From contig CP129473.1 in assembly GCA_030583745.1 (NCBI GenBank), positions 204,551 through 268,550 on the forward strand: 64,000 nucleotides of DNA, in the 5' to 3' direction. The translations under genes and the position numbers were made by a program. The DNA comes from Minisyncoccota bacterium. Lineage in GTDB: Bacteria > Patescibacteriota > Minisyncoccia > Phycocordibacterales > BOKC01. Shown piece by piece: positions 207 to 42,224 of the stretch (its first letter is position 1; each line of letters begins with the position of its first letter). The notes beneath the pieces were generated by a model. The model had not been told where the DNA came from. It did not search any database and saw only the letters and a program-made list of their open reading frames with translations.

Positions 207-905
207 TCAAAAATATTTAGAAAAGAGGGGTCGGTACATATCTTCTCGGATGTCAATATGTAGTTCCTTGCGGTGAATTTTATCACAAAATTCAATAGGT
301 ATTTTTTCAATAATTGCCAAAGGTTGTTGCTCATTCCCTTCGCCCATGATGAACACCGCGGCCGTAGCAAGACTGTCAGCAACATTAGTTTTAGAAAATT
401 TAAATTTTCGCCCAAAAATATCGGGTGTACCACGATAACTTTTCACACCACAAAAACCCGCGTATCCGAGAGCAACACCGGTTACACCCGCTCGGAGCGG
501 GATCGTGCGGCTGTCGGTAATCAAAACACCGAGATGTCTAATGTTGTAATGTTTCCGTAATTTGTTGCGAAGATCGCGAGCCGTCTTGAAACTGTCTTTT
601 GGTAATAAAATTAACTTACCATTCGCATTTGATTCGTCAATTCCGGCAGAAGCCATCACCACCCCGTCTTTGATGGTAAGCCAGGCGTATTTAGTGGGGA
701 TAGCAAATTCGCTTTCCGCGCGAATGAGTTTTTCTTTAGTTTTTATATTTTTGACGACAACTGTTCGCTTTTCCGCAAGGGCGACGATTTTGGAAGTAAC
801 GACAATTACAGATTGATCTGGAATTTTTTTAAAGTGATCGGTAATGAACACAAGTAAGTCATCACCCTCTTGGAAAACACGAGTTTTGATTGGTCGGGTA
901 ATCAT
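207..905 (-). CDS. CofE-like F420-0:gamma-glutamyl ligase family protein
   Basis: 232 aa; SVIVVTSKIVALAEKR and GIDESN motifs resemble CofE/F420-ligase family proteins. Confidence 0.55.
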   Translation of the reverse strand: MITRPIKTRVFQEGDDLLVFITDHFKKIPDQSVIVVTSKIVALAEKRTVVVKNIKTKEKLIRAESEFAIPTKYAWLTIKDGVVMASAGIDESNANGKLILLPKDSFKTARDLRNKLRKHYNIRHLGVLITDSRTIPLRAGVTGVALGYAGFCGVKSYRGTPDIFGRKFKFSKTNVADSLATAAVFIMGEGNEQQPLAIIEKIPIEFCDKIHRKELHIDIREDMYRPLFSKYF

Positions 906-7651: not shown

Positions 7652-8197
7652 ATGATTAAAATGGGGGTGTTCAGAATGGGTGGCCTCAATGACACGGACG
7701 TCAGAAGAAAGATTCCACTCAATCAAGCTGTAAGAAGGGAGGTGGTGATCAAGAAAGCTGGAAAAAAAACACAAGAAACACAAGGAGGCAACGTCGACTT
7801 CAACGTCTGGGTGGTGGGTGTCCTACTCAATGTGAAGGATGTCATCCAACCCGGGAGGGACGAAAAGGTCGACATTATCGGGATTACGCCCGAGATGCTA
7901 GGAATTACAGAAGAGGTCGGGCATCAGAGATTCTGCGAGGAGGCAGCAAGGTGCTGTGTTTTTGGAGGGAAGCTCCGTCTCTGCCATCCGGCTTTGGTGA
8001 CAGATATCGCCGAGCAACATCCAGATCTCTGCGAGACGCATACGTTCATTGGAATGAAAGGTGTGAAAGTCCCTAGCGCCCAAATTCCGATGATTCTCGC
8101 CCTCTCAACAGATTCAGTTGGGCAACCGGAAATCGTCTGCGCCTTTGCCACCGACAAGATCGAAACAGGCACAACTGTTCTCTTTGTTGTCGGGTGA
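7652..8197 (+). CDS. hypothetical protein (GC-rich, likely foreign)
   Basis: 181-aa ORF with GC3-rich codon usage unlike its neighbours. A hairpin at 7625-7647 precedes the start and a GC hairpin plus T-run terminator sits at 8226-8260. Confidence 0.4.
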   Translation: MIKMGVFRMGGLNDTDVRRKIPLNQAVRREVVIKKAGKKTQETQGGNVDFNVWVVGVLLNVKDVIQPGRDEKVDIIGITPEMLGITEEVGHQRFCEEAARCCVFGGKLRLCHPALVTDIAEQHPDLCETHTFIGMKGVKVPSAQIPMILALSTDSVGQPEIVCAFATDKIETGTTVLFVVG

Positions 8198-8328: not shown

Positions 8329-8691
8329 ATGCCGAAAGATGAAAAGAAAATACGTAAGCGCCGTAAGCGCGAGTACACGTGGTATGTGGAGCCAACCAGT
8401 CCTCTTGCCAACCTCATCTTGAGCAACATGCTTGATGCCGAAGAGACCTGCGAACAAGTCCTACTACAAGACAACTCGACCCGCAATCTTTGGCGTTGTC
8501 GCAAACACGACCAAATCGCTCTTTTGAGAAAAAACAAAGACGTCAAAGAGGGCAGAGATTTTGTCGTTTATTGTCAGGAAGGAAACGGCAAAATCAAGGA
8601 AGTGTCATTCCCGGCAATCAAGCGCAAAGCGCGTCGGAAGAAAGAAGCCAAACGAGAAGCGAGAGAGCGAAAACAACTAACCCTCTTCTAG
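8329..8691 (+). CDS. hypothetical basic protein
   Basis: 120 aa, Lys/Arg-rich at both ends, GC-richer than the host; terminator hairpin at 8712-8740. Confidence 0.35.
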   Translation: MPKDEKKIRKRRKREYTWYVEPTSPLANLILSNMLDAEETCEQVLLQDNSTRNLWRCRKHDQIALLRKNKDVKEGRDFVVYCQEGNGKIKEVSFPAIKRKARRKKEAKREARERKQLTLF

Positions 8692-11673: not shown

Positions 11674-11835
11674 CTATCGTCGTGCTACCCACCGAAGCCG
11701 GCTGTCCCAACATCCGGCTCTTTTCTTTTTCTAATTTTATGATAATCTGTCGGCAGAATTCAGCCGGACTGTCCGGGTGGATGTAAAATGTTCTCAAAAA
11801 ATAGGAGAGATACTCATGAGTGGAAAGGAATAGTC

Positions 11836-12561
11836 ATGAAGCCAATCATTCCACTGCCAGGAGAAGATCTCCTGGAACTTGGAAAGCGCTGCAATGCGGT
11901 GTATGTGTGTCCGAAGGACGGAGACAGGCGCATCGGACCTCTCGTTGCCTACGCCGGAAAAGACAGCCAGGGGCGGAACCTCGTCGGAGACATCTACTTC
12001 AACTTCCGGCGGATCGAAGTTCACCCGAAAGTAGTCGAGGCATTTGCCGAGGTTGCCTGCCAGAAGCTCTGGGAACAGGGTCGCATCGACTCGTTCGACA
12101 CTGTCTGCGGGATTCCGCAAGGTGGCCGGACGTTCGGTCAAATGCTCGCACTCGTCGCAGACAAGCGTTTCGTGTATGCGGACAAGAAGCCAAAGCCGAC
12201 GGAAACAGGCAAGAAACAGGAATACACCTGGGATTTGTCGCAATTCGATTTTGAGCAAGGTGAACGTGTCGCTATCGCGGAAGACGTTTACAACAACTTC
12301 CAAAATACCGACAGCACCCTGGCCGAGATCGCCGTCACCGGAGCAAACATCGTGCTCCTAGTCGGAGCGCTTAACCGCTCTCTGGTCTACGACAGGACCT
12401 ACACAACAAAAACACTCCAAATCTTGCCCGTCATCGCTTCCATTCGTGAAGCATATCCGGAATTCGAGCAGGACGATCCCGCTGTTGCAGCGGATATTGC
12501 CGCCGGCAACGTCGAGTTCGAGGTAAAGAAGAACTGGGCGAAACTGATGGGGATGCAGTAA
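11836..12561 (+). CDS. type I phosphoribosyltransferase-domain protein (orotate PRTase-like, degenerate PRPP loop)
   Basis: GIPQGG...KK...FEQGERVAIAEDVYNNFQNT aligns to the OPRTase core, but the PRPP-loop TTG is replaced. Start chosen at the ATG after RBS GGAAAGGA; the ORF track begins at 11788. Confidence 0.5.
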   Translation: MKPIIPLPGEDLLELGKRCNAVYVCPKDGDRRIGPLVAYAGKDSQGRNLVGDIYFNFRRIEVHPKVVEAFAEVACQKLWEQGRIDSFDTVCGIPQGGRTFGQMLALVADKRFVYADKKPKPTETGKKQEYTWDLSQFDFEQGERVAIAEDVYNNFQNTDSTLAEIAVTGANIVLLVGALNRSLVYDRTYTTKTLQILPVIASIREAYPEFEQDDPAVAADIAAGNVEFEVKKNWAKLMGMQ

Positions 12562-14407: not shown

Positions 14408-14950
14408 TTAGCCCTTGGGCACGAGCTTATCGAAAGCCAGACGAACCGCCCCTCTCTCGTCGTAGTACATAGCAATCACATCAAGGTCAGTCACGCCAGT
14501 GCTCTTGTCGAAGTCCCGCAGATGGCAGATGTTGCCGACTTCGCTCCCCGGAAGAAGTTCCAGCCCACCGCTTGAAGGTCCGAGATGGATGAGCTTGAGA
14601 AAATCGGGATCTGGCATAAAAATGCCGAAAGTGGTAGCATCTTCCGTATCTCCCCGGTGCTCCACCAGCTTGACGAGTCGGCCACGGTTTTGAACCAGAA
14701 GCTTGTGAGCAGCTTCCAGACCAAGTTCCTCTTGCGCTTCACGCAAGAGTGCGGCTTCCTCGTCATCGTCGCCCAGTTCCACCCTGCCGTGGCAAGTTAC
14801 CTGGCAGCCGCCGGGGTAGCTCTCCTTGATCTTGCCATCCGCGAGCTTTTCGGGGTTGAACTTCCCGCGCCGCTGAAGCACCGCAACCACTCCCACCTCG
14901 GGAACTTTAGTCAAAACAACCAGTCCAACACTCCGTTTCTTCTCGGCCAT
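14408..14950 (-). CDS. Nudix hydrolase-like protein (GC-rich)
   Basis: GRVELGD...LREAQEELGL matches the second half of the Nudix box exactly (REUxEExGU), with a one-residue spacing variation in the first half. Confidence 0.55.
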   Translation of the reverse strand: MAEKKRSVGLVVLTKVPEVGVVAVLQRRGKFNPEKLADGKIKESYPGGCQVTCHGRVELGDDDEEAALLREAQEELGLEAAHKLLVQNRGRLVKLVEHRGDTEDATTFGIFMPDPDFLKLIHLGPSSGGLELLPGSEVGNICHLRDFDKSTGVTDLDVIAMYYDERGAVRLAFDKLVPKG

Positions 14951-16395: not shown

Positions 16396-16541
16396 TGGTA
16401 AAAATTAATCGACGTCACAAAATTGTGCTATATTGGAAGATGGAAAGTCCCTCTTCGTCTTTCTTGCCAATGCCCGTGTTCAGAACGACAGGTAAATATA
16501 CTGATACAAAGCACACCACAAACTAAGAAGGAGAAGACAAA

Positions 16542-17471
16542 ATGACGACCGCAGAGACCGGAGTGACGGCTCTGCCGTCGTCTCGTTCCACAAGACTAGG
16601 AGTTTTGTTCTTCGTCATTGCCCCACTCGTCGGCCTGATCTTGGCGATCTGGCTCTCTTGGGGGCGCGGGGTTTACGCCCTCGACATCATCCAGCTCGTC
16701 TTCTGGCACTCTATCACTGGACTGGGAGTGACAGTCGGTTTCCACCGACTCTTCACTCACGCTTCATTCAAGACCTACTCTCCGGTGAAAGCTACGCTAG
16801 GAATCTTGGGCTCAATGACAGCCCAAGGAAACTTGTTCCAGTGGTGCGCCGTTCACATGAAGCACCATCGCTATAGCGATGGAGAAAACGATCCACACTC
16901 GCCTCATGCTTACGGAGAAGGATTTTGGGCGGTCTCTCGCGGATTCTGGCACGCCCATGTTGGATGGCTCTTCTCCCATGACATGCCGTCCTCGGAAATG
17001 GAGAGGATGACGAAAAAGTTAAGGAAAGAGCGCCTTCTCGTCTGGATCGACAAACTCTTTCTCCTTTGGGTCGCCCTAGGACTTCTGCTTCCGACTCTCG
17101 TGGGCTGGCTTTTTGTCGGCACATGGGAAGGAGCTTTCCGTGGTTTTCTCTGGGGTGGAATCATCCGAATAGGAACGGTACATCACGTGACTTGGAGTAT
17201 CAATTCCGTCTGCCATCTTTGGGGGCGGAAAGATTTCCAAAGTGAAGACCAGAGTCGCAACAACTGGATCTTCGGCCTCTTGGGTTGGGGCGAAGGTTGG
17301 CACAACGGCCACCACGCTTTCCTCTGGTCTGCCAAGCACGGTCTTCTACGCGGACAGATGGACCCTAGTTGGTGGATAATCAAAGGCCTGGAATGGCTGG
17401 GATTGGCTTCGGGCATCAGAGTTCCTGAAGCCAATGCAATTCAGGCAAAGCGAAAACAACAAAAAGAATAG
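16542..17471 (+). CDS. acyl-lipid/acyl-CoA (delta-9 type) fatty acid desaturase
   Basis: Three His boxes (HRLFTH, HMKHHRYSD, HNGHHAF) and TM segments; GC3-rich codons; strong SD AAGGAG; terminator 17480-17516. Confidence 0.8.
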   Translation: MTTAETGVTALPSSRSTRLGVLFFVIAPLVGLILAIWLSWGRGVYALDIIQLVFWHSITGLGVTVGFHRLFTHASFKTYSPVKATLGILGSMTAQGNLFQWCAVHMKHHRYSDGENDPHSPHAYGEGFWAVSRGFWHAHVGWLFSHDMPSSEMERMTKKLRKERLLVWIDKLFLLWVALGLLLPTLVGWLFVGTWEGAFRGFLWGGIIRIGTVHHVTWSINSVCHLWGRKDFQSEDQSRNNWIFGLLGWGEGWHNGHHAFLWSAKHGLLRGQMDPSWWIIKGLEWLGLASGIRVPEANAIQAKRKQQKE

Positions 17472-17479: not shown

Positions 17480-17516
17480 ACCCGCGCTACCAACTGGAGC
17501 GCGGGTCTTTCTTTAT
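17480..17516 (+). terminator. intrinsic terminator after the desaturase gene
   Basis: acccgcgct/agcgcgggt 9-bp stem followed by ctttctttatc. Confidence 0.7.
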
Positions 17517-18259: not shown

Positions 18260-20953
18260 ATGACTGATTGGTATAAAAAAAATTTAGAGACAATCACAAA
18301 GGAATTCGGTGTAAATCAAGCATTTGGTTTATCCAAAACAGAGGCCGATGAACATTTGAGAAGATACGGCCCAAATAAACTTCCAGAATCAAAACCAGAT
18401 GGTTTATTTGTTATATTTTTTAGACAATTCCAAAGTCCTTTAATTTACTTACTTTTAGCCGCATCGGTTCTGGTAATGTTTTTAGAAGAATGGATTGATG
18501 CCGGAATCATAATTTTTGTTCTTTTATTTAATGCTATAGCTGGAACCGTACAGGCTGGTAAGGCTCAAAACACTCTATTAGCTCTAAGAAAATTTACCGA
18601 GACCAACACCACCGTTTTACGTGACGGTAAAGAAATAATCTTGCCGGACCAAGAAGTGGTCCCAGGTGACATTCTTATTCTACAAGAAGGCGACAAAATT
18701 CCGGCTGATGCCAGAATAATATCTGCCCATAACTTAAGAATTGATGAATCCGCCTTTTCCGGCGAATCTTTACCTTCAAGTAAAACTACCGAAATCTTAG
18801 AAGAAGAAAATTTATCACCAGCTGAACAAAAAAATATGGTTTTTAAAGGAACGCATATTGTTGGTGGAAATGGAAAAGCGGTGGTTGTAGCTACAGGTTT
18901 AGATACAGAGATAGGAAGAATTTCCGAAAAAATAAGTGAGATAAAAACTGAAATTCCACTCCAAAAAAATATCAAGAATCTCTCAAATTTGATAATTATA
19001 GTAGTGTTAGTTGTTAGCTCTCTTATTTTCTTTCTTGGCTTATTGACCGGAAAAGCAATTGAGGAAATTTTTCTCTTGTCGGTGTCTATAATAATTTCTG
19101 CCGTTCCGGAAGGTCTGCCAATTGTTATTACCCTGCTTTTGGCAACTGGGGTTTGGCGTATGAGTAAGCGCAATGTTTTAATTAAAAAACTTCAAGCTGT
19201 TGAAGCACTCGGCCAAGCACAAATTATTGCCGTAGACAAAACCGGCACACTGACAAAAAGTCAGTTAGTGACGCAAAAACTATATCTCGGCAGTGAAGAA
19301 AACTTTTCAATTACCGGTGTTGGTTATGATTCAGAAGGAGAAATCACATTCCAAGACAAAAAAATTTTTCCGGAAGATAATCCGCTACTCAAAAGAGCAG
19401 GTTTAATCGCCGGTCTTTGCTCAAACGCTAAAATTTTCAAAAAAGATGGCAATTGGAAGATTTCTGGAGATCCAACAGAAGCAGCGCTTTCAATTCTAGC
19501 GGTAAAAACTGGCTGGCCGATAAAAAAACTAGAAGACGATTTTCATCAAATAGCAGAAATTCCTTTTGATTACAAACTAAAATATCACGCTGTCCTACAT
19601 GAAATAGAAGGTAAAAAAATTATCTTTATTTCTGGCGCGCCGGAAATTATTCTAAATTTGTGCAAAAAAATAAAAACTAAAAACAAAGAGGAGGTGCTTG
19701 AAGAAGAAAAAAGAAAAGAAATACTTGATATTTTTTCAAGAATGTCAAGTGAAGCTTTGCGAGTTTTAGCTTTAGCCGAAAAAAATACGGATAAAGATTT
19801 TCTAGAAAAAGAAGATATCACGGATCTAACTTTTGTCGGACTTTGTGGAATGAAAGACGCTTTACGCGAAGAAGTCCCGGAAGCTATGGCAAAAACCCGT
19901 GAAGCCGGGGTCAAGGTGGTGATGATCACTGGTGACCACAAAATTACTGCGGAAGCCATTGCAAAAGAAGCCGGAATTTGGAAAAAAGGAGATAAAATCT
20001 TAACCGCTGAAGAACTAGAAAATTTACCAAAAGAAAAGCTGGCAGAGATTTTACCGGAAGTTTCAGTTTTTGCCAGAATCACTCCGGAAAACAAATTGAA
20101 GATAATTGAAGCTTATAAATTGCGTGGAGAGACGGTCGCAATGACCGGAGACGGAGTAAATGACGCCTTGTCTTTGGTAGCGGCAGATCTTGGAGTATCT
20201 ATGGGCAAAGGTGGTACTGAAGTCGCCAAGGAGGCCTCCGATTTGGTTTTACTGGATGATAATTTCGGTAGTATCGTCTCGGCGGTGGAAGAGGGTAGAA
20301 GCATTTACCGAACTTTAAGAAAGGTTTTACTTTATCTTTTTGCTACTAGTCTGGGAGAAATTATGGTCATTGCCGCCGCCATGCTTATGGGCCTACCCTT
20401 GCCAATTTTAGCGGCACAATTGATTTGGTTGAATTTAGTCACCGACGGCTTTTTGGATGTTTCGCTGGCTATGGAACCAAAAGAAAAAGATATTCTGAAA
20501 GAAAAATACAAAAAACCGAATCGGTGGATTTTAAATAGCTGGGATTTGCAAAGGATGATTTTAAACGCCTCAACTATGGCAATAATTTCTATTTTACTTT
20601 TTATTTATTTCTTGGACAATTACAGCTACGAACACGCACTTTCAATTTCTCTGACAACAATGGCGGTCTTCCAATGGTTTAAAGCCTGGATTTGTCGCTC
20701 CGACCACCTTTCAGTTTTCCAAATAAATCCTTTTTCAAACAAATACCTTTTGGGTGCAACAGGCATTGTGGTCATCTTACAACTTCTTGCCCTCCATACT
20801 CCATTTATGCAAAACATCCTACGACTAACCCCGCTTAGTCTAAACGAATGGATTTTGATTATTTCAATCTGCCTTACCGGAGTTGCAATAGATGAAATCA
20901 GAAAAATGTTCTATCGAAAATTTGAAATGAAAAAAAATCTTGTTCAGATATAA
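18260..20953 (+). CDS. cation-transporting P-type ATPase (Ca2+-ATPase-like, P2 type)
   Basis: 897 aa with DKTGTLT phosphorylation site, TGDGVNDA hinge, TGES and about ten TMs. Confidence 0.9.
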   Translation: MTDWYKKNLETITKEFGVNQAFGLSKTEADEHLRRYGPNKLPESKPDGLFVIFFRQFQSPLIYLLLAASVLVMFLEEWIDAGIIIFVLLFNAIAGTVQAGKAQNTLLALRKFTETNTTVLRDGKEIILPDQEVVPGDILILQEGDKIPADARIISAHNLRIDESAFSGESLPSSKTTEILEEENLSPAEQKNMVFKGTHIVGGNGKAVVVATGLDTEIGRISEKISEIKTEIPLQKNIKNLSNLIIIVVLVVSSLIFFLGLLTGKAIEEIFLLSVSIIISAVPEGLPIVITLLLATGVWRMSKRNVLIKKLQAVEALGQAQIIAVDKTGTLTKSQLVTQKLYLGSEENFSITGVGYDSEGEITFQDKKIFPEDNPLLKRAGLIAGLCSNAKIFKKDGNWKISGDPTEAALSILAVKTGWPIKKLEDDFHQIAEIPFDYKLKYHAVLHEIEGKKIIFISGAPEIILNLCKKIKTKNKEEVLEEEKRKEILDIFSRMSSEALRVLALAEKNTDKDFLEKEDITDLTFVGLCGMKDALREEVPEAMAKTREAGVKVVMITGDHKITAEAIAKEAGIWKKGDKILTAEELENLPKEKLAEILPEVSVFARITPENKLKIIEAYKLRGETVAMTGDGVNDALSLVAADLGVSMGKGGTEVAKEASDLVLLDDNFGSIVSAVEEGRSIYRTLRKVLLYLFATSLGEIMVIAAAMLMGLPLPILAAQLIWLNLVTDGFLDVSLAMEPKEKDILKEKYKKPNRWILNSWDLQRMILNASTMAIISILLFIYFLDNYSYEHALSISLTTMAVFQWFKAWICRSDHLSVFQINPFSNKYLLGATGIVVILQLLALHTPFMQNILRLTPLSLNEWILIISICLTGVAIDEIRKMFYRKFEMKKNLVQI

Positions 20954-21465: not shown

Positions 21466-22536
21466 ATGACAACAATGACGCGTAAGTTTGACATTTCGAA
21501 CCCTTTTGGTGCCGTCTGGGGAGCTTCGGGAGTTCAGGGATTCTTCGGGGAGGGATATCCTTTTCACTCCATACTCAAAAGATTCTGTCCGGGCTTTTTG
21601 CTTCGGATATCCTTTGTGGCGAAAACTGCCACTCTCGACTCAAGACCGGGAAATATGCCTCTTAGCGGCATCACTCCGACAGAACGTTTACCGAAATGTG
21701 TTTGGGCAAGCCACCGGAAGGGGATTGCCTTAAACGCCGTCGGACTCTCGAACCCGGGGCTGGAAGCTCTTCTACTCGGAAAGTTCAAAGGTGTTCCGCA
21801 GACATGGCAAGAAAGAGACAAGCCCTTCCAGATTTCGATCATGTCCACAGCTCAAACCTCCGAAGCTCGACTTCGGGAGACAAAAGACATGTTGGGCTTG
21901 ATCGGCAGATGCGCTACGGACTTCCAATCCGAATTCGGAATTCAAATCAACATCTCGTGTCCGAACGTCAGCATGAGCCACCGCTCAAATGAGGACACGG
22001 TGAATGAGACTCTGGCAACTCTTGACCTCGCTAAAGATAGCGCGCCTGGAATCAGGATCATCGTGAAGCTCTCACCGACTTTCCCGCCGGAGTCCGTTCA
22101 TCAAATTTCCCGACACCCAGCTTGCTGGGGTATCGTCATGGGCAATACAGTCCCGTGGCGAAGTCCAATCCCGTGGCTCCTTGAAGAATCTGGGTTACAA
22201 ATCAACTGGGATGATCTCTTTGGCAAGGATGAAAAGTCACCACTTCAAAAGCGTGGCTTAACGCAAGCTGGTGGGCTGTCAGGCAGACCGCTTCTGCCAA
22301 TCATCTGCGAATGGATTCAGCGAGCGCGCGGGTCTGGAGTTCAATGTCACCTGAACGGCGGAGGAGGAATCCTCCACCCGAAAGATGTGTGCCGGGTCTT
22401 TGACGCTGGCGCTGATTCTATCTCTCTCGGTTCAATCGCCTTCCTCCGCCCGTGGCGTTTGGCAGAGTGTATCACCGAGTCGCATCTTAAGATGTTGAGG
22501 CGTTTTTTCGAACATGGACATGGAGCAACTGACTGA
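21466..22536 (+). CDS. dihydroorotate dehydrogenase-like (PyrD family) TIM-barrel flavoenzyme
   Basis: ALNAVGLSNPGLEAL, QINISCPNV, GGLSGRPL and GGGGI...AGAD motifs of the DHODH/DHPDH family; GC-rich. Confidence 0.7.
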   Translation: MTTMTRKFDISNPFGAVWGASGVQGFFGEGYPFHSILKRFCPGFLLRISFVAKTATLDSRPGNMPLSGITPTERLPKCVWASHRKGIALNAVGLSNPGLEALLLGKFKGVPQTWQERDKPFQISIMSTAQTSEARLRETKDMLGLIGRCATDFQSEFGIQINISCPNVSMSHRSNEDTVNETLATLDLAKDSAPGIRIIVKLSPTFPPESVHQISRHPACWGIVMGNTVPWRSPIPWLLEESGLQINWDDLFGKDEKSPLQKRGLTQAGGLSGRPLLPIICEWIQRARGSGVQCHLNGGGGILHPKDVCRVFDAGADSISLGSIAFLRPWRLAECITESHLKMLRRFFEHGHGATD

Positions 22537-22612: not shown

Positions 22613-23665
22613 ATGGTAACCAAAAAAATTGATGTTCCTCCACTCGTTGACATGCATGTCCACCTGCGGGAAGGAGCGGGTCTGATCAAAGACCTTCTCC
22701 AACTCCACGTCGCTGGAGGTGCAGATGTCCTTGGCATGATGCCAAATACCACGGAAGGTCTGACAACTGCAAAAGCGGTGCACGACTACCACAAACAAGT
22801 AGTCAATCTCATGATCGGACCGGAAAGGCAGATTACTCCAGTTCCGTTTCTGATGATTACGCCCGAGACGACCACCGACGACATAAGGAGGGCAGCTTCA
22901 GAAGAGATCAGGAATGCGAAGCTCTACCCCTTGGGACGGACAACAAATTCCAACAGGGGTATCCGAGACTACGCCAAACTCCTGCCAATAATCAGAATGT
23001 GTGGGGAACTTGATGTGTTCTGTCACTTCCATCCAGAGCATCCTGACATGCTCTTTGACAACAGAGACGCCGAGTACGTCTTCCTTCCTCTCGTTGACAT
23101 CTTCCTACGCGAAACCAACGCCAAGATCGTCTGGGAACACGGCACTGACGCGCGTTGCATCCCGTTCTGGATAGATATGGCAGGCACCCACAGATTCTTC
23201 GTCACCCTAACTGCTCATCACCTCGCGACAGACGAAGATGATGTCTTCGGCGACGTGCGTGCTATCTGCAAACCACCGATCAAAACCAGACGAGACTGTG
23301 CCGATCTCCGAGCGCTGGTTGCCAAAAATTACTCTTGGGTGATGGCCGGCACTGACAGTGCTCCACATCCAAGAAAATCCAAACATGTCTCGGATGGCAG
23401 ATGCGCTTGTGGCGCTTTCACTGCACCTTTTGCCTTACCTCTCTACGCTCACGCTCTAAATGACTTGCTCCAAACTCCGGAAGGGGTAGAGGCCTTCGTC
23501 AATTTCACGAGCCGCAACGCTCGAAGTGTTCACAGATTGCCAACAACAACCAGAACGCGAGCTCTCGTCTGTGAACCTTTCAAGGTTCCGGATCAATACG
23601 AGGTTGGAGACTGGTCAATCGAACCGTTCTGGGCTGGTCAGAAAATCAGATGGACACTCATCTAA
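22613..23665 (+). CDS. dihydroorotase-like (class II PyrC type) amidohydrolase
   Basis: VDMHVHLREG, KLYP and GTDSAPH motifs shared with E. coli-type PyrC; GC-rich; terminator 23700-23745. Confidence 0.7.
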   Translation: MVTKKIDVPPLVDMHVHLREGAGLIKDLLQLHVAGGADVLGMMPNTTEGLTTAKAVHDYHKQVVNLMIGPERQITPVPFLMITPETTTDDIRRAASEEIRNAKLYPLGRTTNSNRGIRDYAKLLPIIRMCGELDVFCHFHPEHPDMLFDNRDAEYVFLPLVDIFLRETNAKIVWEHGTDARCIPFWIDMAGTHRFFVTLTAHHLATDEDDVFGDVRAICKPPIKTRRDCADLRALVAKNYSWVMAGTDSAPHPRKSKHVSDGRCACGAFTAPFALPLYAHALNDLLQTPEGVEAFVNFTSRNARSVHRLPTTTRTRALVCEPFKVPDQYEVGDWSIEPFWAGQKIRWTLI

Positions 23666-23954: not shown

Positions 23955-25571
23955 TCATATAAATCTCAAAAGGATTCGTAATAGTTTAAGCATGTGAGGG
24001 GCCATTAGCTCATTTGGTAGAGCGCGCCCATGGCATGGGCGAGGCGACCGGTTCGAATCCGGTATGGTCCACCCGATTGAATTTCCCCGCAAAAATGCGT
24101 CCGCGCTCCGCGCGGTGATGGGAAGTTCGGCAAGAAAAGAAAAGGGCGTTTTGAAATCCACGGAGAGCGCGCTTGCGCGCAAATGGCGGTTCGAGCCGAT
24201 GGTTTTCAAAAAAGTTTTCATTTCCTCAAACTTTTTTGAAGAAGCGAGATTTTGTGCTTGGTTGGCTTGTAAAATCCAGTTTCGCACGAGTTCGAGCCAA
24301 TGATTTCCTTTTCGCTCAAAATCAGATAATTTTTCCTCTAGCGTTTTCTTTTCCGACATCAAAGCGTTCTTTTTCTGTTGAAACTCCGACAACTCAAAAC
24401 CGCCATCCAAGTATCCATCCATGAGGCGGTCAATCTTTGCTTTGATGTCAGAAATAGAAGAACGCAGATTTTGAGCGAAAACTCCCGATGATTGGCGGTT
24501 CTCTTGTTCCCATAGGGCGAGCTTGCCGAGATATTTGTCTCGCCATTCATCGGGCAAAGAAACCTTTTGACAAAGTTCCTGCACTTGTCGTTCAAATTCT
24601 TCTTCCCGCAAAAATTTATTTTCAGAACATTTAGCAATTTTGCTCTTGTGGGTACAGCGATAGTAAATAAACTGCAAACCACTTTTTTTGATATGTCTTT
24701 CGGCAGTTATCGCATAGCCACATTCCCCACAAGTAGCAAAATTTAGAAACTGAAAATTCTTTTTCTTTTGATTTTTGCGGGGTTTTCCATTTGCGACAAG
24801 TGCCTCCTGTATCTTGTCAAAAAGTTTCTTTGAAATCATTGGCTTGTGCGAACCTTGATGCACTTCGCCTCGGTAAGAAAAATATCCATAGTAAAAAGGA
24901 TTTTTCAAAATATGTTCTACCGAGGCGAGTGCGAAAGGTTTGCCAGATCGTGCGCCAACCAAGCCAAGAGAAAACATTTTGCGTTGAATAGCCGTGAGTG
25001 TATATTCGCCAGTGCTAAAAAGCTCCAATACTTCTTTTATTTTACGAAACGTCTTTTTGTCTGGTTCAATCGTTCGAAGTCGCGGTTCGTTAAAATAACC
25101 GATTGGAGCTTTTGCCGATAATTCACCACGGCGTATCTTTTGCCGTATCCCACGCAAAATGTTTTCTCTTAAATTGTCGGTGTAATATTTTGCTTGTCCG
25201 AAAGCGACACTCAACATAAATTTTCCTTGGGGTGTCGCTTCGAACCAAAATGTCGGGAATTTTAGCGCAACAATTTTTAGCGTGTCCACAAAATATATGA
25301 CCTTGCCACCATCAATGCTATTTCTCGCCAAACGGTCTGGATTCCACGCTAAAATTCCCGAGGCAGAACCTTTTTCAATTTCGCCAAGCATTTCGTTAAA
25401 TACTTCACGACCAGGCTCTTTGGCCGTTTTACTTTCATAATACTCACGAACAACAAATAACCCATTTTGCTTGGCGTATTCCCGAAGCTCATGAAGTTGC
25501 GCCTCAATACTCAAAACTTGGCGTTCTTCGTCCTCACTTGATTTTCTACAATATATAAAATATTTGATCAT
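23955..25571 (-). CDS. large serine recombinase (resolvase/integrase family with recombinase domain and zinc ribbon)
   Basis: N-terminal YCRKSSEDEERQ...SIEAQ catalytic-Ser motif, recombinase domain, CGECG...C zinc ribbon and a coiled-coil tail. The ORF has no stop until it has read through IR1-L and the antisense of tRNA-Ala, so the true C-terminus is uncertain. Confidence 0.8.
   Translation of the reverse strand: MIKYFIYCRKSSEDEERQVLSIEAQLHELREYAKQNGLFVVREYYESKTAKEPGREVFNEMLGEIEKGSASGILAWNPDRLARNSIDGGKVIYFVDTLKIVALKFPTFWFEATPQGKFMLSVAFGQAKYYTDNLRENILRGIRQKIRRGELSAKAPIGYFNEPRLRTIEPDKKTFRKIKEVLELFSTGEYTLTAIQRKMFSLGLVGARSGKPFALASVEHILKNPFYYGYFSYRGEVHQGSHKPMISKKLFDKIQEALVANGKPRKNQKKKNFQFLNFATCGECGYAITAERHIKKSGLQFIYYRCTHKSKIAKCSENKFLREEEFERQVQELCQKVSLPDEWRDKYLGKLALWEQENRQSSGVFAQNLRSSISDIKAKIDRLMDGYLDGGFELSEFQQKKNALMSEKKTLEEKLSDFERKGNHWLELVRNWILQANQAQNLASSKKFEEMKTFLKTIGSNRHLRASALSVDFKTPFSFLAELPITARSADAFLRGNSIGWTIPDSNRSPRPCHGRALPNELMAPHMLKLLRILLRFI
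23999..24071 (+). tRNA. tRNA-Ala (anticodon GGC), CCA not encoded
   Basis: GGGCCAT acceptor with G3:U70, anticodon stem CGCCC/GGGCG with loop ATGGCAT, T-loop TTCGAAT. Confidence 0.8.
24069..24192. repeat. IR1-L: 124-bp arm, perfect inverted copy of 25690-25813
   Basis: Base-by-base reverse-complement identity read from the sequence; begins within the last 3 nt of the tRNA. Confidence 0.9.
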
Positions 25572-25689
25572 GAGCTTCGGGGATTAAATTGATAAAAGGT
25601 TTTGCATTACACCGACAATTTCTAAATCTCGCTTCTCATCGGCTCCTCGGGTATTCCCGAGAATGAGGCAAAATTTATTTTGGCTCATG

Positions 25690-25813
25690 GAACCGCCATT
25701 TGCGCGCAAGCGCGCTCTCCGTGGATTTCAAAACGCCCTTTTCTTTTCTTGCCGAACTTCCCATCACCGCGCGGAGCGCGGACGCATTTTTGCGGGGAAA
25801 TTCAATCGGGTGG
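25690..25813. repeat. IR1-R: 124-bp arm, inverted copy of 24069-24192
   Basis: Direct comparison; ends in tcgggtgg, overlapping the start of IR2-L by the 5-nt GGTGG. Confidence 0.9.
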
Positions 25814-26071
25814 TGTCTTTTAAACAAAGTCCGAACTTTTTACGAACAAAATCCTGATGCCGACTAATCGCACGCTCCGCGCGCGTGGTGGCTCGAAACT
25901 ACCTCGTACGCTCTAAACAATGGACTCGGTTTTGCGGAAGCAATTTTCTGGGGATATGGTTTCCGCAAAACCTCGACTACTTTCGGATTTCGCAAGCGGA
26001 GGAGGAGGGGTCTGGGGAGGAATCCTCCGCTTGCTCCATCCGTTTTCTTTTGGCGAAATTCGGGGCGGACA
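25809..26071. repeat. IR2-L: 263-bp arm, perfect inverted copy of 31037-31299
   Basis: Direct comparison; GC-rich and hairpin-rich (ttgcggaa..ttccgcaa, gcaagcggagga..tcctccgcttgc). Confidence 0.9.
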
Positions 26072-26129
26072 TCACCCTATTACATTATACTATAATATTG
26101 GTGTATAATGTAAATGAAAGTGCTATGAT

Positions 26130-26342
26130 GTGGATATGAAAAGCGAGTCCGCGAAGTTAGGCAAAAACCTAAAGCGTATCCGAACGGAGAAAGGGATAAC
26201 ACAGGGCGATATTGTGCGAACACTCGGCGTTAGCCGAAGTTTTGTGAGCAATATTGAGAATGGAAAAACAAATCCTACACTTTCAACCATTACCAGTATT
26301 GCCAAAGCGCTTGGTGTTTCGAGCGATGAATTGTTAAAATAG
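26130..26342 (+). CDS. XRE-family HTH regulator (R-M controller C-protein candidate)
   Basis: 70 aa with LKRIRTEKGITQGDIVRTLGVSRSFVSNIENGK HTH; sits directly upstream of the MTase. Confidence 0.7.
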   Translation: MDMKSESAKLGKNLKRIRTEKGITQGDIVRTLGVSRSFVSNIENGKTNPTLSTITSIAKALGVSSDELLK

Positions 26343-26346
26343 ACTT

Positions 26347-27303
26347 ATGACAAAAAATCAAGCAATTTTAGAACTTAAAAAGACTTTTGATATAAATGAG
26401 ATTTATGCCCATAGAGTTTTTTTACTTGCAGACAAAACAAAATTTATTGAGGATGCCTCTCGTATTATTGCAGAAAAACCAAAACCATTTGTGAAATGGG
26501 TCGGTGGTAAAAGACAACTTTTAGCACAATTTCGCTTGATGAATCTTTATCCGCCAGAAAGATTTGATACAAAAAACGGGAGATATTTTGAACCATTCGT
26601 AGGTGGCGGGGCAGTATTTTTTGATCTACTTCCTGTAACAGCTTTTCTTTCCGATTTAAACAATGAACTTGTTGTAACCTACAATGTGATTAAAAATGAT
26701 GTTGAAAATTTAATAAAATCACTTAAAAAACATAAATTAGACAAGGAATATTTTCTAAAAATAAGGGCACAAAATCCAGAAAAACTTTCCGATTTAAATA
26801 TAGCTTCTCGTTTTATTTATCTAAATAGAACTTGTTTCAATGGAATGTACCGCGTGAATAGTAAGGGTGGATTTAATGTTCCCTTTGGAAAATACACAAA
26901 CCCTCTTGTTTGCGATGAAAATAATCTTAGAAAAGTATCAAAAGCATTGAAAAATGTTGAGATAAAAAAACAGGATTATAAAGAAGTGCTTAAAAAAGCA
27001 AAAAAGGGAGATTTTGTTTATTTTGATCCACCATATTATCCAATAAGCAAAACTGCTTCATTTACTTCTTACACCAGTGAATCATTTTTAGATAAAGAAC
27101 AAATTGAATTGAGAGATACATTTGTAGAATTACACAAACGAGGTTGCTTTGTTATGCTTTCAAATTCTGATACTCCATTCATAAACAAAATTTATTCTGA
27201 ACCAAAAGGTCTCCGTATTACAAAGGTACAAGCAGGTCGTGCCATTAACTCTGACGCTTCAAAGAGAGGAAAAATCACGGAGGTACTGGTAACTAATTAC
27301 TAA
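26347..27303 (+). CDS. Dam-family N6-adenine DNA methyltransferase (DpnM/M.MboIA-like)
   Basis: KWVGGKRQLL SAM/target motif near the N-terminus and a FDPPYYP catalytic motif. Confidence 0.85.
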   Translation: MTKNQAILELKKTFDINEIYAHRVFLLADKTKFIEDASRIIAEKPKPFVKWVGGKRQLLAQFRLMNLYPPERFDTKNGRYFEPFVGGGAVFFDLLPVTAFLSDLNNELVVTYNVIKNDVENLIKSLKKHKLDKEYFLKIRAQNPEKLSDLNIASRFIYLNRTCFNGMYRVNSKGGFNVPFGKYTNPLVCDENNLRKVSKALKNVEIKKQDYKEVLKKAKKGDFVYFDPPYYPISKTASFTSYTSESFLDKEQIELRDTFVELHKRGCFVMLSNSDTPFINKIYSEPKGLRITKVQAGRAINSDASKRGKITEVLVTNY

Positions 27304-27309
27304 TACAAT

Positions 27310-28167
27310 ATGCAAAAAGATTTTAATAATTTAATAACAACTTTCAAAAACTCAATTAAAACATGGGATTACTTTGTGAACTGGAAAAAGGTTTTTGGTA
27401 ATTCTTCTAATCTCGAAATTACTTTAAACAAACTAAACTATCTCTTGGGTAAGGAGAATTTAAAAGATGAATTTAAAAAACTCTATAGCTCAAATCCAGA
27501 TATTGTAAAAGCATTACCTGTACTTTTGGCAGTTAGAGAAAATAAGCTAGAAGTTTTTGATAAAGTTACCAAAAATTCTGAATTCTTTGATTTTTCTGGT
27601 ACAGAAAAGGATTCAGAAAAGTACTATGAATTTTTAGAAAAATCTGGACTTGCCCGTCTATTTCAAAAAGATGGGGTAAAAAATTTGGTTGATTATGTTA
27701 TGGGCATTGAAGTTGGTCTTGATAGTAATGGTCGTAAGAATCGTGGAGGATCTTTGATGGAAGAAATTGTAGAATCATTTATTAGTGAGCTTTGTAATAA
27801 AAATGGCTTTGAATACTTATCGCAAGCACGAGCAACTACAATAAAAAGTAAGTGGGGCGTAGATGTAAAAGTTGATAAATCAGAACGCAGTTTTGATTTT
27901 GCTGTGTTCAATCCTAAAAACAAAAAAGTTAAATTGTTTGAAGTAAATTTCTATAATGGTGGTGGCTCGAAACTCAAAGCGGTATGCGGAGAATTTAAAA
28001 GCTTATATACAGAACTCAAAGATCAAAATATAGATTTTATATGGATAACCGATGGGCTTGGTTGGTTTACAACAAAAAGACCTCTCGAAGAAACATATAA
28101 TCATAATGAATATGTTTTTAACTTAAACATGCTTGAAGCTGGCGTTTTGGATAAACTCGTATGGTAA
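27310..28167 (+). CDS. DpnII/MboI-family type II restriction endonuclease
   Basis: 285 aa; GIEVGLDSNGRKNRGG and the N-terminal TWDYFVNWKKVF resemble the DpnII (dpnB) family; M1-R-M2 order as in MboI. Confidence 0.7.
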   Translation: MQKDFNNLITTFKNSIKTWDYFVNWKKVFGNSSNLEITLNKLNYLLGKENLKDEFKKLYSSNPDIVKALPVLLAVRENKLEVFDKVTKNSEFFDFSGTEKDSEKYYEFLEKSGLARLFQKDGVKNLVDYVMGIEVGLDSNGRKNRGGSLMEEIVESFISELCNKNGFEYLSQARATTIKSKWGVDVKVDKSERSFDFAVFNPKNKKVKLFEVNFYNGGGSKLKAVCGEFKSLYTELKDQNIDFIWITDGLGWFTTKRPLEETYNHNEYVFNLNMLEAGVLDKLVW

Positions 28168-28171
28168 ATAT

Positions 28172-28915
28172 ATGTCAGATATTAAACTGCACCCTGAAGA
28201 ATTTGAATTAGAATGTACAACCGTATGGGCTTTTCCTCGCAGGGGAAACTGGGCTACGCATAAATCTGACTGGCGTGGAAATTGGTCGCCCGAAGTAGCT
28301 CGCAATCTTATTTTAAGATATTCAAAAGAGAAAGATCATTTACTAGACTGCATGATTGGTGGAGGCACTACGGCAATAGAAGCAAAAATTTTAAATCGTC
28401 ACATTACTTGCGTTGATGTTAATGAAGAAGCTTTAGAGCGAACAAAAAAATCGCTTGAATTTGAAGTTGATAATAAATCAAAACAGCGTGTAGTGAAATG
28501 CGATGCGAGAAATATGAGTTTCATTAAAGATAATGAGATAGATTTTGTCTTAACTCATCCTCCGTATGCAGATATTATAAAATATAGTGAAGGTAAAATT
28601 AAAGAAGATTTGTCAGAAATACACGATATAGACGCTTTTGTTGATGAAATAGAGAAAGTTGCAAAGGAATTATTTAGAGTATTAAAGAAAGGAAAATATT
28701 GTGCAATTTTGATGGGAGATACTCGAAGAAATAGAATGTATCAACCTCTTGCATTTAAAGTTATGCAAAAGTTTTTAGATGTAGGCTTTGTTTTAAAAGA
28801 GGACATAATAAAAAGACAGTTTAATTGTAAGGCGACAGGTTTTTGGGTCGCAAAATCAAAAGAATCAAATTTCCTATTGATAATGCATGAGCACCTTTTT
28901 GTGTTTCAGAAATAA
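28172..28915 (+). CDS. second DNA methyltransferase of the cassette (DpnA/M.MboIC-like, beta-class amino-MTase)
   Basis: LTHPPYADII catalytic motif and GGGTTAIEA SAM motif. Start chosen at ATG 28172; the ORF track starts at 28133. Confidence 0.75.
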   Translation: MSDIKLHPEEFELECTTVWAFPRRGNWATHKSDWRGNWSPEVARNLILRYSKEKDHLLDCMIGGGTTAIEAKILNRHITCVDVNEEALERTKKSLEFEVDNKSKQRVVKCDARNMSFIKDNEIDFVLTHPPYADIIKYSEGKIKEDLSEIHDIDAFVDEIEKVAKELFRVLKKGKYCAILMGDTRRNRMYQPLAFKVMQKFLDVGFVLKEDIIKRQFNCKATGFWVAKSKESNFLLIMHEHLFVFQK

Positions 28916-28962
28916 TTTAATAAATTATTGATATTCGGAGTTAAAAATGCTAGAATGCCACT

Positions 28963-29994
28963 ATGTCAAAAGTAGAACTTATAAAGAAAATCGAAGCAAA
29001 AAGAGGATCAAAAGTCATTACCTATGTGACAAGTGATAGGCAAGGACCTGTAAATGCCCGTGTTGCTATGGATATTATTCCAATAGTTAGCGAACAGCTT
29101 CGTAAAATTGGCACGAAAGTTCCTAAAATTGACCTTTTTCTTTACACAGCAGGCGGAGATACCATGGTTCCGTGGCGTTTAGTTTCTATGATACGAGAAT
29201 ATTGTGATACTTTCTCTGTTCTTGTTCCTTATAAGGCACACAGTGCTGGAACAATGATTGCTTTAGGCGCTGATGAAATAGTAATGAGCGATCTTTCAGA
29301 AATCTCACCGATTGACCCTTCAACCGCAAATGTTTTTAATCCATCAGACCCAACAAACCCGCAAAATAAAATTCCTATTTCTGTTGAGGATGTTATCGCA
29401 TACTTTGATTTGGCAAAAAATAAATTTGGTATTAAGAGCGATGAAGACCTGACAAAGATTTTTAATAAGTTTATGGAATCAAATCCTCAAATTCACCCGC
29501 TTGCTCTGGGTAATGTAAATCGCACACACAATCTTATACGATTGCTAGCCAAAAGATTACTCAAGAGCCATAAAGAGCCGATGAAAGAAGATCAGATTGA
29601 AAAAATCGTTGAGGCATTTACCGAAAAACTATACTCGCACATGTATTTTATAGGTAGAAAGGAAGCTAAAGAAGAGTTAAATGTGAAATCAATCGTCTAT
29701 GCTGATGCTGAACTTTCTGAACTTATGTCTAAACTTTATTCTGAATACGCGAACGAAATGGAATTGCAAAATACAGTTTGGAATCCAGAAAATGAAATCG
29801 GGATGAATGCAAGTCAAAACAAAAAAGAATACAAAGTAGCTTTTGTAGAAAGCGCAGTGCTTCCAAAGGCTTATGGGCTAACAATGGAGTTTAAACGTCA
29901 GCAAGTAATGGTTCCTCAGCAAACTCCGCAAGGAATTATTCAAGTTCCACAAGAACAAGTTGCGATGAGAGTTGTAGGGCAAGGTTGGAAGTAA
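28963..29994 (+). CDS. SDH/ClpP-fold serine peptidase-like protein (S49/SDH family candidate)
   Basis: LFLYTAGGDTMVPWRLV, AHSAGTMIALGADEIVM and SPIDP resemble the Ser-dehydrogenase-proteinase/SppA Clp-fold motifs. Confidence 0.45.
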   Translation: MSKVELIKKIEAKRGSKVITYVTSDRQGPVNARVAMDIIPIVSEQLRKIGTKVPKIDLFLYTAGGDTMVPWRLVSMIREYCDTFSVLVPYKAHSAGTMIALGADEIVMSDLSEISPIDPSTANVFNPSDPTNPQNKIPISVEDVIAYFDLAKNKFGIKSDEDLTKIFNKFMESNPQIHPLALGNVNRTHNLIRLLAKRLLKSHKEPMKEDQIEKIVEAFTEKLYSHMYFIGRKEAKEELNVKSIVYADAELSELMSKLYSEYANEMELQNTVWNPENEIGMNASQNKKEYKVAFVESAVLPKAYGLTMEFKRQQVMVPQQTPQGIIQVPQEQVAMRVVGQGWK

Positions 29995-32048: not shown

Positions 32049-32372
32049 ATGGAAACAAAAAATGTAAAATTCGTTGTCTTCGTTCCACTCTCTCACGCTG
32101 ATATTGTGCGCCAAGCTCTCGGCGAAGCCGGAGCTGGGAAAATTGGAAACTATGACTTCTGCTCTTTTTCTTCTCGTGGCACTGGGCGTTTTCGTGGAAA
32201 CGAAAAGACCAGTCCTGCTATTGGGAAAGCTGAAAATTATGAGGCGGTAGAAGAAGAAAGAATTGAAGCTATTGTGCCACGAGCAATTTTGAAAGAAGTC
32301 GTTGAAAAAGTAAAAGCGATTCACCCATACGAGGAAGTTGCCTTTGATATTTATCCATTGGAAACATTATGA
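32049..32372 (+). CDS. PII/CutA-fold small protein (COG3323-like, Nif3-insert-type domain)
   Basis: VKFVVFVP...GAGKIGNYDFCSF..GTGRFRG...HPYEEVAFDIYPLE pattern. Confidence 0.45.
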   Translation: METKNVKFVVFVPLSHADIVRQALGEAGAGKIGNYDFCSFSSRGTGRFRGNEKTSPAIGKAENYEAVEEERIEAIVPRAILKEVVEKVKAIHPYEEVAFDIYPLETL

Positions 32373-32950
32373 ATATTTTAATTTTCGGGGACAGCATAAC
32401 TTGGGGCGCATACGATCCAGAGCAAGGCGGCTGGGCTACTCGCCTACGAAATTATTTTGAAGCACAAGACAACGATATTGATGTTTACAATCTTGGTATT
32501 TCTGGCGACACCACAGCCGACTTGCTCGAACGAATTGAAGTGGAAGCGAAATCGCGCGAGCCGAACTTGATAATTTTTGCTATTGGAATCAATGATGCGC
32601 AGTATATCCATTCTACAAACGGCTTGCGCGTTTCGCTTGATGAATTTCAACAAAATCTCGCAAAACTTTTTTCTATCGCCAAGAAATTTACCAGTGAGGT
32701 TGTATTCGTTGGTCTAACGCGGGTAGATGAATCAAAAACCACCCCCATCCCGTGGAACACTGACAAATCCTATACCAACGAAAACATCGAGCGACTTGAT
32801 AGCGCGATTGAGAAGTTTTGCAAGGACAACAAGCTGAAATTCATCCCAATGGAAAGCGTCGTCGAAAACGACGACCTTATTGACGGACTTCATCCGAATA
32901 CTGTAGGTCATACCAAAATGTTTGAAAGGATAAAGTCCGAAATTAAATAG
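32369..32950 (+). CDS. SGNH/GDSL hydrolase family protein
   Basis: N-terminal ILIFGDSITWG block and a C-terminal DGLHPN block. Confidence 0.75.
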   Translation: MNILIFGDSITWGAYDPEQGGWATRLRNYFEAQDNDIDVYNLGISGDTTADLLERIEVEAKSREPNLIIFAIGINDAQYIHSTNGLRVSLDEFQQNLAKLFSIAKKFTSEVVFVGLTRVDESKTTPIPWNTDKSYTNENIERLDSAIEKFCKDNKLKFIPMESVVENDDLIDGLHPNTVGHTKMFERIKSEIK

Positions 32951-42011: not shown

Positions 42012-42224
42012 ACCCGAATGAGTTTAGATTTTAAATTCGGAGATCCTGAGGGAGCGCTTGCGCGAGTCGAACGGATCGTAGAATTTAAAATTTGATGGGA
42101 TGCCTGCCCCATACCAAGCTCTGCTTTGGTATGGGGTGATTGAGTTTAAGGTTAAAAACAAAAATGAAAAACCCCGACCGAAATCGGGGCTCATCGTCAA
42201 AGCATATCGATGAAAGCTTGTGCT

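Follow-up and report, generated by a model that had tools for sequence, protein, structure and literature searches.

The closest structurally characterised relatives of the protein described here are the mammalian stearoyl-CoA desaturases (SCD1; 4YMK, 4ZYO, 6WF2). The cytochrome b5/b5-reductase system is absent from bacteria, and the electron donor of a bacterial enzyme of this type must therefore differ from that of SCD1. A characterised bacterial example is DesA3 (Rv3229c) of Mycobacterium tuberculosis with its reductase Rv3230c. Cyanobacterial DesC is an acyl-lipid delta-9 desaturase, while Des of Bacillus subtilis is a delta-5 acyl-lipid desaturase that uses ferredoxin or flavodoxin and belongs to a different His-box subfamily. 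Here we describe a gene for an SCD-type desaturase in a 64,000-nucleotide stretch of the contig CP129473.1 (assembly GCA_030583745.1, positions 204,551 to 268,550 of the forward strand), hereafter called the window. The host is a member of 'Candidatus Paceibacterota', a synonym of the phylum Minisyncoccota, within the Candidate Phyla Radiation (CPR).

Bacteria of the CPR have been described as apparently unable to synthesize membrane lipids or fatty acids and as dependent on hosts for them (PMC7242380). A horizontal transfer related to lipids has been reported, that of a lysophospholipase from Pseudomonadota to a metagenome-assembled genome (MAG) of Paceibacteria; a desaturase is not mentioned there (PMC12455944). 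The two cases are alike in that a single metabolic gene bearing on the use of foreign lipids passed from a non-CPR bacterium into Paceibacteria. However, the lysophospholipase is a hydrolase that releases fatty acids, whereas the enzyme of the window is an O2-dependent modifier of acyl chains. Full-text literature searches on desaturases in CPR, Patescibacteria, Parcubacteria and Saccharibacteria, and on lipid scavenging by CPR, gave carotenoid desaturases or unrelated topics, and none of the matches reported a desaturase of fatty acids from CPR.

We consider it likely that the gene codes for a functional SCD-type desaturase, which was anciently acquired as a cassette, has been retained, and desaturates acyl chains taken from other cells. 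The gene and its signals, in positions of the window, are the following:

16542..17471, + strand: coding sequence of the SCD-type desaturase, 309 aa, an open reading frame (ORF) starting with ATG; the end coordinate takes in the stop codon.
16426..16434, + strand: extended -10-like promoter element TGCTATATT, read from the sequence, part of a GTGCTAYAYTT motif.
16527..16533, + strand: Shine-Dalgarno sequence GAAGGAG, 8 nt 5' of the ATG, read from the sequence.
16743..16760, + strand: His box 1, HRLFTH, residues 68-73, aligned with HRLWSH of SCD1.
16854..16880, + strand: His box 2, HMKHHRYSD, residues 105-113, aligned with HRAHHKFSE of SCD1.
17202..17216, + strand: N-x3-H motif NSVCH (N221/H225), an extra metal-ligand motif of the SCD family, aligned with NSAAH of SCD1.
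17301..17321, + strand: His box 3, HNGHHAF, residues 254-260, aligned with HNYHHSF of SCD1.
17480..17514, + strand: hairpin with a U-rich tail, resembling an intrinsic terminator, found by folding.

The protein is identical to the GenBank entry WKZ26686, already named acyl-CoA desaturase. It matches the Pfam family FA_desaturase (PF00487) over residues 57-260 with 64.5 bits, against a cut-off of 29.7. In a sequence search of the PDB the sole matches are human SCD1 (E-value 2e-31) and mouse SCD1 (E-value 1.5e-30). The His boxes, of the forms HX4H, HX2HH and HX2HH, can all be aligned with those of SCD1, as can the N-x3-H motif, and the spacings agree as well: 37 residues separate box 1 from box 2 and 29 residues separate the N-x3-H motif from box 3, in both cases exactly as in SCD1. 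There the first two boxes are positioned at H120 and H157, and the N-x3-H residues are N265 and H269 on transmembrane helix 4 (TM4). In an alignment of 64 homologues the nine metal-ligand positions are invariant. The invariant residues of the motifs include H68, R69 and H73 in box 1, H105, H108, H109 and D113 in box 2, N221, S222, C224 and H225 in the N-x3-H motif, and H254, H257, H258 and F260 in box 3.

The AlphaFold2 model has a mean predicted local distance difference test score (pLDDT) of 93.9 and a predicted template-modelling score (pTM) of 0.90. It contains four long membrane helices (residues 15-38, 46-72, 173-192 and 195-226), i.e. the same number of predicted transmembrane helices as in SCD1. 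When the model was compared with the PDB using Foldseek, the only significant matches were SCD1 structures (4ymk, 4zyo, 6wf2), with a probability of 1.00 and TM-scores of 0.70-0.74; all subsequent matches had an E-value above 1. The fold of SCD1, in which four transmembrane helices bear a di-metal domain on the cytosolic side, is thus matched by the model. The protein and SCD1 are alike in fold, His boxes, N-x3-H motif and spacings, but they are only about 25-28% identical in the structural alignment, and the protein of the window has a 10-residue insertion after His box 2. Compared with the bacterial acyl-CoA delta-9 desaturases known by annotation from Planctomycetota, Sumerlaeota and Actinomycetota, it is 50-59% identical over the full length and of similar size, and its third box has the bacterial-type form GEGWHNxHHAF common to these proteins. 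It differs from them in its host, a CPR bacterium with a 0.69-Mb genome, and in having no reductase gene adjacent. According to the alignments and the model, the protein is an SCD-type (delta-9 'first desaturase') di-iron integral-membrane desaturase. The activity expected of this type is a cis-delta-9 desaturation of C16/C18 acyl chains that depends on O2 and an electron donor, and in the window protein, too, the double bond would most likely be placed at a delta-9-like position.

We filed the protein as SCD-type and not as DesA because it scores 82.3 bits against NCBIfam NF049918 ('DesA family fatty acid desaturase', an equivalog), far under the cut-off of 400, and is no member of that family. 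The same low score leaves some room for the best-surviving alternative, in which the protein belongs to the same superfamily and has another activity (delta-5, delta-6 or delta-11 desaturase, hydroxylase, ketolase, or modifier of sphingolipids or ether lipids) with no role in controlling fluidity through scavenged fatty acids. The His-box superfamily is known to be functionally plastic, and no partner genes point to a substrate. On the other hand, both spacings (37 and 29 residues) are exactly those of SCD1, the predicted fold matches SCD1 only, and among the relatives with 50-55% identity hundreds carry the annotation of a stearoyl-CoA or acyl-CoA delta-9 desaturase, which is evidence at the level of annotation only. 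On balance we regard a different activity as unlikely.

The regulatory signals would be consistent with an autonomous cassette, with a promoter-like motif and a terminator of its own. The motif GTGCTA(C/T)A(C/T)TT is found 60-117 nt 5' of the desaturase ATG in the window and in the loci L001 and L089 of two relatives, and in L089 it is kept despite the inversion of the gene. A sigma-70 consensus scan called no promoter upstream of the desaturase; TGCTATATT would presumably act as one, judging from its sequence. The terminator consists of a hairpin, CCCGCGCU...AGCGCGGG, followed by UCUUUCUUU. It folds with a dG of -23.6 kcal/mol (z=-4.9), and 0/200 shuffled sequences fold as well. A simple terminator scan did not call this hairpin, probably because its 9-nt loop is over the limit of the scan. 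Hairpins rich in GC with T-runs are also present 3' of the desaturase in L001, L089, L092 and L093; these are non-homologous in sequence and equivalent.

The original prediction, made from the DNA letters, had claimed a three-His-box desaturase with its own Shine-Dalgarno sequence and a clean terminator in a CPR-type genome, and our analysis agrees with it. All three boxes lie where they were read, with a spacing compatible with desaturases, the Pfam score is above its cut-off, GAAGGAG ends 8 nt ahead of the ATG and the hairpin is far more stable than its shuffles. As for the genome, the ATP synthase beta subunit, RarA and the P-type ATPase of the window are identical to WKZ26674, WKZ26685 and WKZ26688 of the same 691,769-bp contig, which is recorded as a MAG of a 'Candidatus Paceibacterota bacterium'. 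The content of the window is also typical for CPR: an F-type ATP synthase, a few enzymes of glycolysis and gluconeogenesis, tRNA synthetases, and DUF5671 and DUF5679 proteins.

To place the desaturase among its homologues we searched 5.8 billion proteins. Close relatives are few (P0001 96%, P0002 79%, P0003 74%, P0004 69%, P0005 63% and P0006 59% identity), and below P0006 there is a plateau of thousands of sequences at 50-55% identity. The best species representatives in GTDB belong to Phycisphaerales, Tepidisphaerales and other Planctomycetota, with 42-52% identity. In a neighbour-joining (NJ) tree of 81 sequences, the window protein and P0001-P0005 form a clade with 98.5% bootstrap, joined by P0006 as sister with 100%, and this clade lies inside a radiation dominated by Planctomycetota. 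The contig of P0006 has a GC content of 62.5%, and one of the proteins encoded in the neighbourhood of P0006 shares 85-87% identity with proteins from Candidatus Sumerlaeaceae MAGs. The donor would thus have been a bacterium rich in GC and close to Sumerlaeota or Planctomycetota. The donor phylum is not fixed by the tree, as its deep nodes are weak.

The composition of the gene also sets it apart from its surroundings. The desaturase has a GC content of 0.537 and a GC content at third codon positions (GC3) of 0.600, compared with 0.408 for the GC content of the window and about 0.37 for the GC3 of host genes. For the genes of S13, S11, S4, S9 and RpoA (59-63 kb) GC3 is 0.31-0.39. Synonymous codon usage was compared with a host-like reference set, taking the amino-acid composition of each gene as given, and the desaturase had z=6.4 and a Karlin B of 0.479. 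Host-like genes mostly have |z|<2.5, with the P-type ATPase (-3.2) and the serine recombinase (+3.5) as extremes. Both GC content and codon usage switch sharply at the borders of the gene, and the flanking intergenic regions are AT-rich and host-like. The ratio of GARP to FYMINK residues is 1.23, compared with 0.50-0.87 in membrane proteins of the host and 1.5-3.1 in donor-like homologues. Unlike that of the annotated bacterial desaturases, the codon and amino-acid composition of the gene falls between donor-like and host-like values.

Horizontal acquisition by the CPR lineage is supported by the codon test, by the difference in GC3 and by the nesting of the clade among non-CPR sequences. The original prediction had proposed such an acquisition from codon usage and suggested a comparison with the ribosomal genes of the window, from which the desaturase is indeed distinguishable.

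The next best alternative is a native, vertically inherited CPR gene, whose GC content results from the constraint of a protein rich in His, Trp, Gly and Arg or from codon selection. In its favour, the GC excess is found in all five members of the clade despite near-saturated synonymous sites, conserved four-fold sites show no drift towards AT, and desaturases are GC-enriched in other genomes of low GC content as well (L042 0.50 vs 0.42, L076 0.52 vs 0.44). The codon test, however, is conditional on amino acids and still gives z=6.4. Further, the family is very rare in CPR, where it forms two small clades, each among different non-CPR phyla; the closest outgroup comes from a Sumerlaeaceae genome that agrees with the gene in composition; and the other GC-rich genes of the window are likewise metabolic add-ons atypical for CPR. 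A native origin is in our judgement very improbable.

The persistence of the GC excess calls for a closer description. The excess in GC3 is +0.2 to +0.27 and equal across the clade members with sequenced neighbours. Between clade members synonymous sites are near saturation, the synonymous divergence (dS) being 1-2 in the desaturase and, in most host genes, 1.5-2.7. At conserved four-fold sites we counted 17 changes from G or C to A or T (S>W) against 23 in the opposite direction (W>S), i.e. no drift towards AT, and the GC content of these sites (GC4) is 0.43-0.56, near host values. The excess is found mainly in two-fold codons, of which 0.67 vs 0.39 end in C and 0.47 vs 0.26 end in G. Simple neutral amelioration fits this pattern poorly, the substitution counts being suggestive and not decisive. 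The pattern might come from selection acting on codons or on GC content, from gene conversion biased towards GC, or from related CPR lineages exchanging the cassette.

The GC-rich codon signature recurs in six more genes located from 7.6 to 23.7 kb (z 3.6-8.5):

7652-8197 and 8329-8691: two GC-rich ORFs without an assigned family.
11788-12561: GC-rich gene for a weakly PyrE-like (orotate-phosphoribosyltransferase-like) protein.
14408-14950(-): GC-rich gene for a NUDIX hydrolase.
21466-22536: GC-rich gene for a PyrD-like dihydroorotate dehydrogenase.
22613-23665: GC-rich gene for a dihydroorotase (PyrC), with 185 bits for pyrC_dimer, under its cut-off.

As these nearby pyrimidine-type and NUDIX genes share it, GC-richness by itself is not specific to the desaturase; it characterises a group of metabolic add-ons. 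In relatives, too, the genes for the PyrD-like and NUDIX proteins are rich in GC. In 80 non-CPR loci from GTDB we found no homologue of the GC-rich genes of the window near the desaturase, and there is therefore no sign of co-transfer. The slot 3' of pyrD is variable: L089 has only a 27.5%-identical homologue of the PyrC-like protein of the window, and L001 has an unrelated GC-rich ORF.

A classical genomic island or integrative element was considered and rejected as the vehicle, as no adjacent integrase, tRNA target or flanking repeat beyond chance was found. At the desaturase there are only chance-level inverted repeats of 10-14 nt and 10-14-mers. No recombinase lies next to the gene; the one of the serine type at about 24-25.6 kb is part of a distinct island that is low in GC. 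A tRNA-like sequence beside the desaturase is found only in L093, the most basal member of the clade.

The genomic neighbourhood shows that the transfer is ancient and not recent. In L001/L002 (GCA_020724885.1, desaturase 79% identical) the genes follow one another as they do in the window, in the order RarA-Des-SpoIIM-P-ATPase-Ion_trans-PyrD. The slot between RarA and SpoIIM also holds the desaturase in L089 (69%) and L092 (74%), but there it is inverted, convergent with RarA. Given the gene tree, the simplest reading would be that the gene was inverted in place once, in the common ancestor of the window lineage and the P0002 lineage. The flanking genes are 74-85% identical between the genomes of the window, L001, L089 and L092, and SpoIIM 53-63%. 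Since the desaturase is syntenic where the flanking genes are only 74-85% identical, the acquisition is older than the split of these lineages. Compared with its orthologues the gene has a ratio of non-synonymous to synonymous divergence (dN/dS) of 0.13-0.15, and it has been under purifying selection.

The divergence of the desaturase does not follow that of every neighbour exactly. Between the window and L001 the protein is 79% identical with a dS of 0.97, and between the window and L089 it is 69% identical with a dS of 1.9. The gene tree of the desaturase likewise places the window together with L001. For most flanking genes the window is no closer to L001 than to L089, the difference being reversed or absent. 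The NUDIX gene behaves like the desaturase, with a dS of about 1.0 between the window and L001 vs 1.5-2.7 for flanking host genes. The low values of these two genes could possibly be due to cassette exchange among CPR or to constrained synonymous sites. In one population variant (L007), RarA is 95.6% identical to that of the window and both the desaturase and SpoIIM 100%, while the P-type ATPase (L007 3166-5894 vs window 18260-20953) is only about 65-66% identical, which suggests allelic replacement by recombination beside the desaturase.

A natural deletion allele of the gene exists in which the following segment is lost:

16918..17337, + strand: 420 bp, in frame, residues ~126-266, containing TM3-TM4, the N-x3-H motif and His box 3.

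The allele codes for 170 aa (P0014; L096-L098) and is found in GCA_013328875.1, GCA_013328915.1 and GCA_013328895.1. Over the aligned part of the gene and its surroundings this strain has 98.6% nucleotide identity with the window, and both RarA and SpoIIM are intact in it. As this allele without His box 3 occurs in three assemblies, the desaturase is dispensable in some populations, which have lost it as an accessory function.

This allele in three assemblies, together with the absence of an adjacent reductase, is what speaks for a decaying relic without current function, in a cell short of O2 or of an electron donor. However, at least four diverged relatives have an intact ORF, as does the window, the metal ligands are conserved, dN/dS is low, and the promoter-like element, Shine-Dalgarno sequence and terminator are kept, even through the inversion. 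We find a relic hard to believe. A contaminant or a chimera of assembly or binning, i.e. a GC-rich fragment stitched into a CPR contig, would explain the sharp switch in GC content and codon usage at the gene borders, but it is practically ruled out by the occurrence of the identical protein, flanked by the same RarA and SpoIIM, on 21 contigs that were assembled independently and stem from several sequencing runs, by the filling of the same slot in diverged relatives whose assemblies come from JGI, NCBI, ENA and Logan, by the host-like AT-rich intergenic regions and by a divergence of the desaturase roughly in step with that of its neighbours.

We thus return to a functional, anciently acquired desaturase. 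According to our proposal, the ancestor of a small sublineage of Patescibacteria/'Paceibacterota' would have gained a single-gene cassette with a promoter-like element, a Shine-Dalgarno sequence and a terminator from a GC-rich bacterium, whose nearest surviving relatives would be one Sumerlaeaceae sequence and then Planctomycetota. The gene would have stayed in the RarA-SpoIIM slot, inverted once, under purifying selection. In each turnover the enzyme would use O2 and two electrons, the latter from an endogenous donor of the ferredoxin or flavodoxin type, to give saturated acyl chains from other cells their first cis double bond, at a delta-9-like position; the chains would be present either in membrane lipids in situ or as thioesters. 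The outcome would be a membrane whose fluidity is tuned under oxic conditions.

As the synthesis of fatty acids and lipids is reportedly absent from CPR, it may reasonably be inferred that the enzyme serves to remodel acyl chains scavenged from other cells. A GDSL lipase/acylhydrolase of the window (32369-32950), with a weak match to thioesterase I/lysophospholipase L1, could supply acyl chains, as fatty acids or lysolipids, from foreign lipids. DesC and Des are models of desaturation directly on membrane glycerolipids with ferredoxin or flavodoxin; by analogy, no mechanism would be simpler than this for a cell importing its lipids whole.

Several observations weigh against this proposal, besides the low NF049918 score and the deletion allele. 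No reductase or cytochrome b5 partner adjoins the desaturase. The sole candidate donor with a flavodoxin fold in the window is an NADPH-dependent FMN reductase (FMN_red, 53903-54448(-)), which lies 36 kb from the desaturase and has a host-like composition, and its use as the electron donor would be pure inference. CPR are often anaerobic fermenters, whereas this enzyme needs O2. No fab, pls or acp genes were found among the annotated ORFs of the 64-kb window, but the window is only 9% of the 692-kb genome. Finally, the deeper split of the Planctomycetota-dominated ingroup has a bootstrap of 40% only.

If the desaturase works as proposed, at least some CPR lineages modify imported acyl chains rather than use them as received, and the habitats of such lineages provide O2. 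When feeding relations are inferred from lipids, remodelling by the symbiont must then be allowed for. The value of the finding lies in the lipid physiology of CPR, their relations to oxygen and the prediction of their hosts; the enzyme class is well known, its host is unusual, and no new biochemistry is involved.

A parallel case is found in Saccharibacteria, where two SCD-type desaturase genes were located:

L042 9974-10936: SCD-type desaturase of a Saccharibacteria GTDB representative.
L094 6001-6972: SCD-type desaturase of Saccharibacteria.

The desaturase of L042 is 44% identical to the window protein and lies in a typical Saccharibacteria context (LigA...Des-Mur ligase-LeuRS), with a GC3 of 0.52 vs 0.28-0.39 in its neighbours. 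The desaturases of this Saccharibacteria sublineage (L042; P0277-P0281) form a small clade of their own, including a member with 55% identity to the L042 protein, which is syntenic in GCA_964348695.1. As in the window, we see a single GC-enriched CPR gene which is syntenic across diverged genomes. The nearest named relatives of the L042 protein are from Solirubrobacterales/Thermoleophilia (Actinomycetota), at 52-58% identity, and in the NJ tree it branches apart from the window clade. As this clade branches elsewhere and its nearest phylum is another one, SCD-type desaturases have been acquired by CPR at least twice, and that this happened independently in the window lineage and in Saccharibacteria suggests that selection has favoured such an enzyme repeatedly.

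The hosts of cultured Saccharibacteria are Actinomycetota. By analogy, the host of the window lineage would be Sumerlaeota/Planctomycetota-like. In a broader form, the donors of CPR desaturases would mark the hosts of these episymbionts, and the class of acquired genes would keep GC-rich codons without slow amelioration; we regard this combined idea as unlikely. If the donor is the host, the enzyme would be matched to the lipid chemistry of the host and the symbiont would re-tune stolen lipids under oxic conditions. If the GC signature is upheld in the desaturase and in the PyrC, PyrD-like, PyrE-like and NUDIX genes, selection, biased gene conversion or a continuing exchange of cassettes among CPR is needed to explain it.

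Elsewhere in the window, the region 23999-29994 holds a tRNA-Ala(GGC) gene, then a large serine recombinase on the minus strand, and then an island of 31% GC with a DpnII-type restriction-modification system (a D12 adenine methylase, a DpnII endonuclease and a second N6/N4 methylase) and an SDH-type protease; it looks like an integrated mobile element. The tRNA gene at 23999-24073 is overlapped by the upstream end of the recombinase ORF (23955-25571(-)), and because of this overlap the true start of the recombinase is probably downstream. A phosphoglucomutase/phosphomannomutase is split into 37354-38229(-) and 38286-38705(-), separating domain I from domains II-IV; this could be either a frameshift or pseudogene, or a genuine split gene. 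Next to it, 36442-36807(+) and 36923-37312(+) are two GC-rich (0.48-0.55), apparently paralogous and highly basic ORFs without a family match. They are overlapped by ORFs on the opposite strand, and their coding strand is uncertain. The 1.9-kb region 42012-43945 contains no ORF of at least 120 aa and no Rfam match. It holds a 48-nt direct repeat, 42132-42179 and 43069-43116, whose copies are 90% identical and 937 bp apart. Finally, 207-905(-) codes for a protein of the F420-0:gamma-glutamyl ligase (CofE-like) family, which seems unexpected in a minimal CPR genome.

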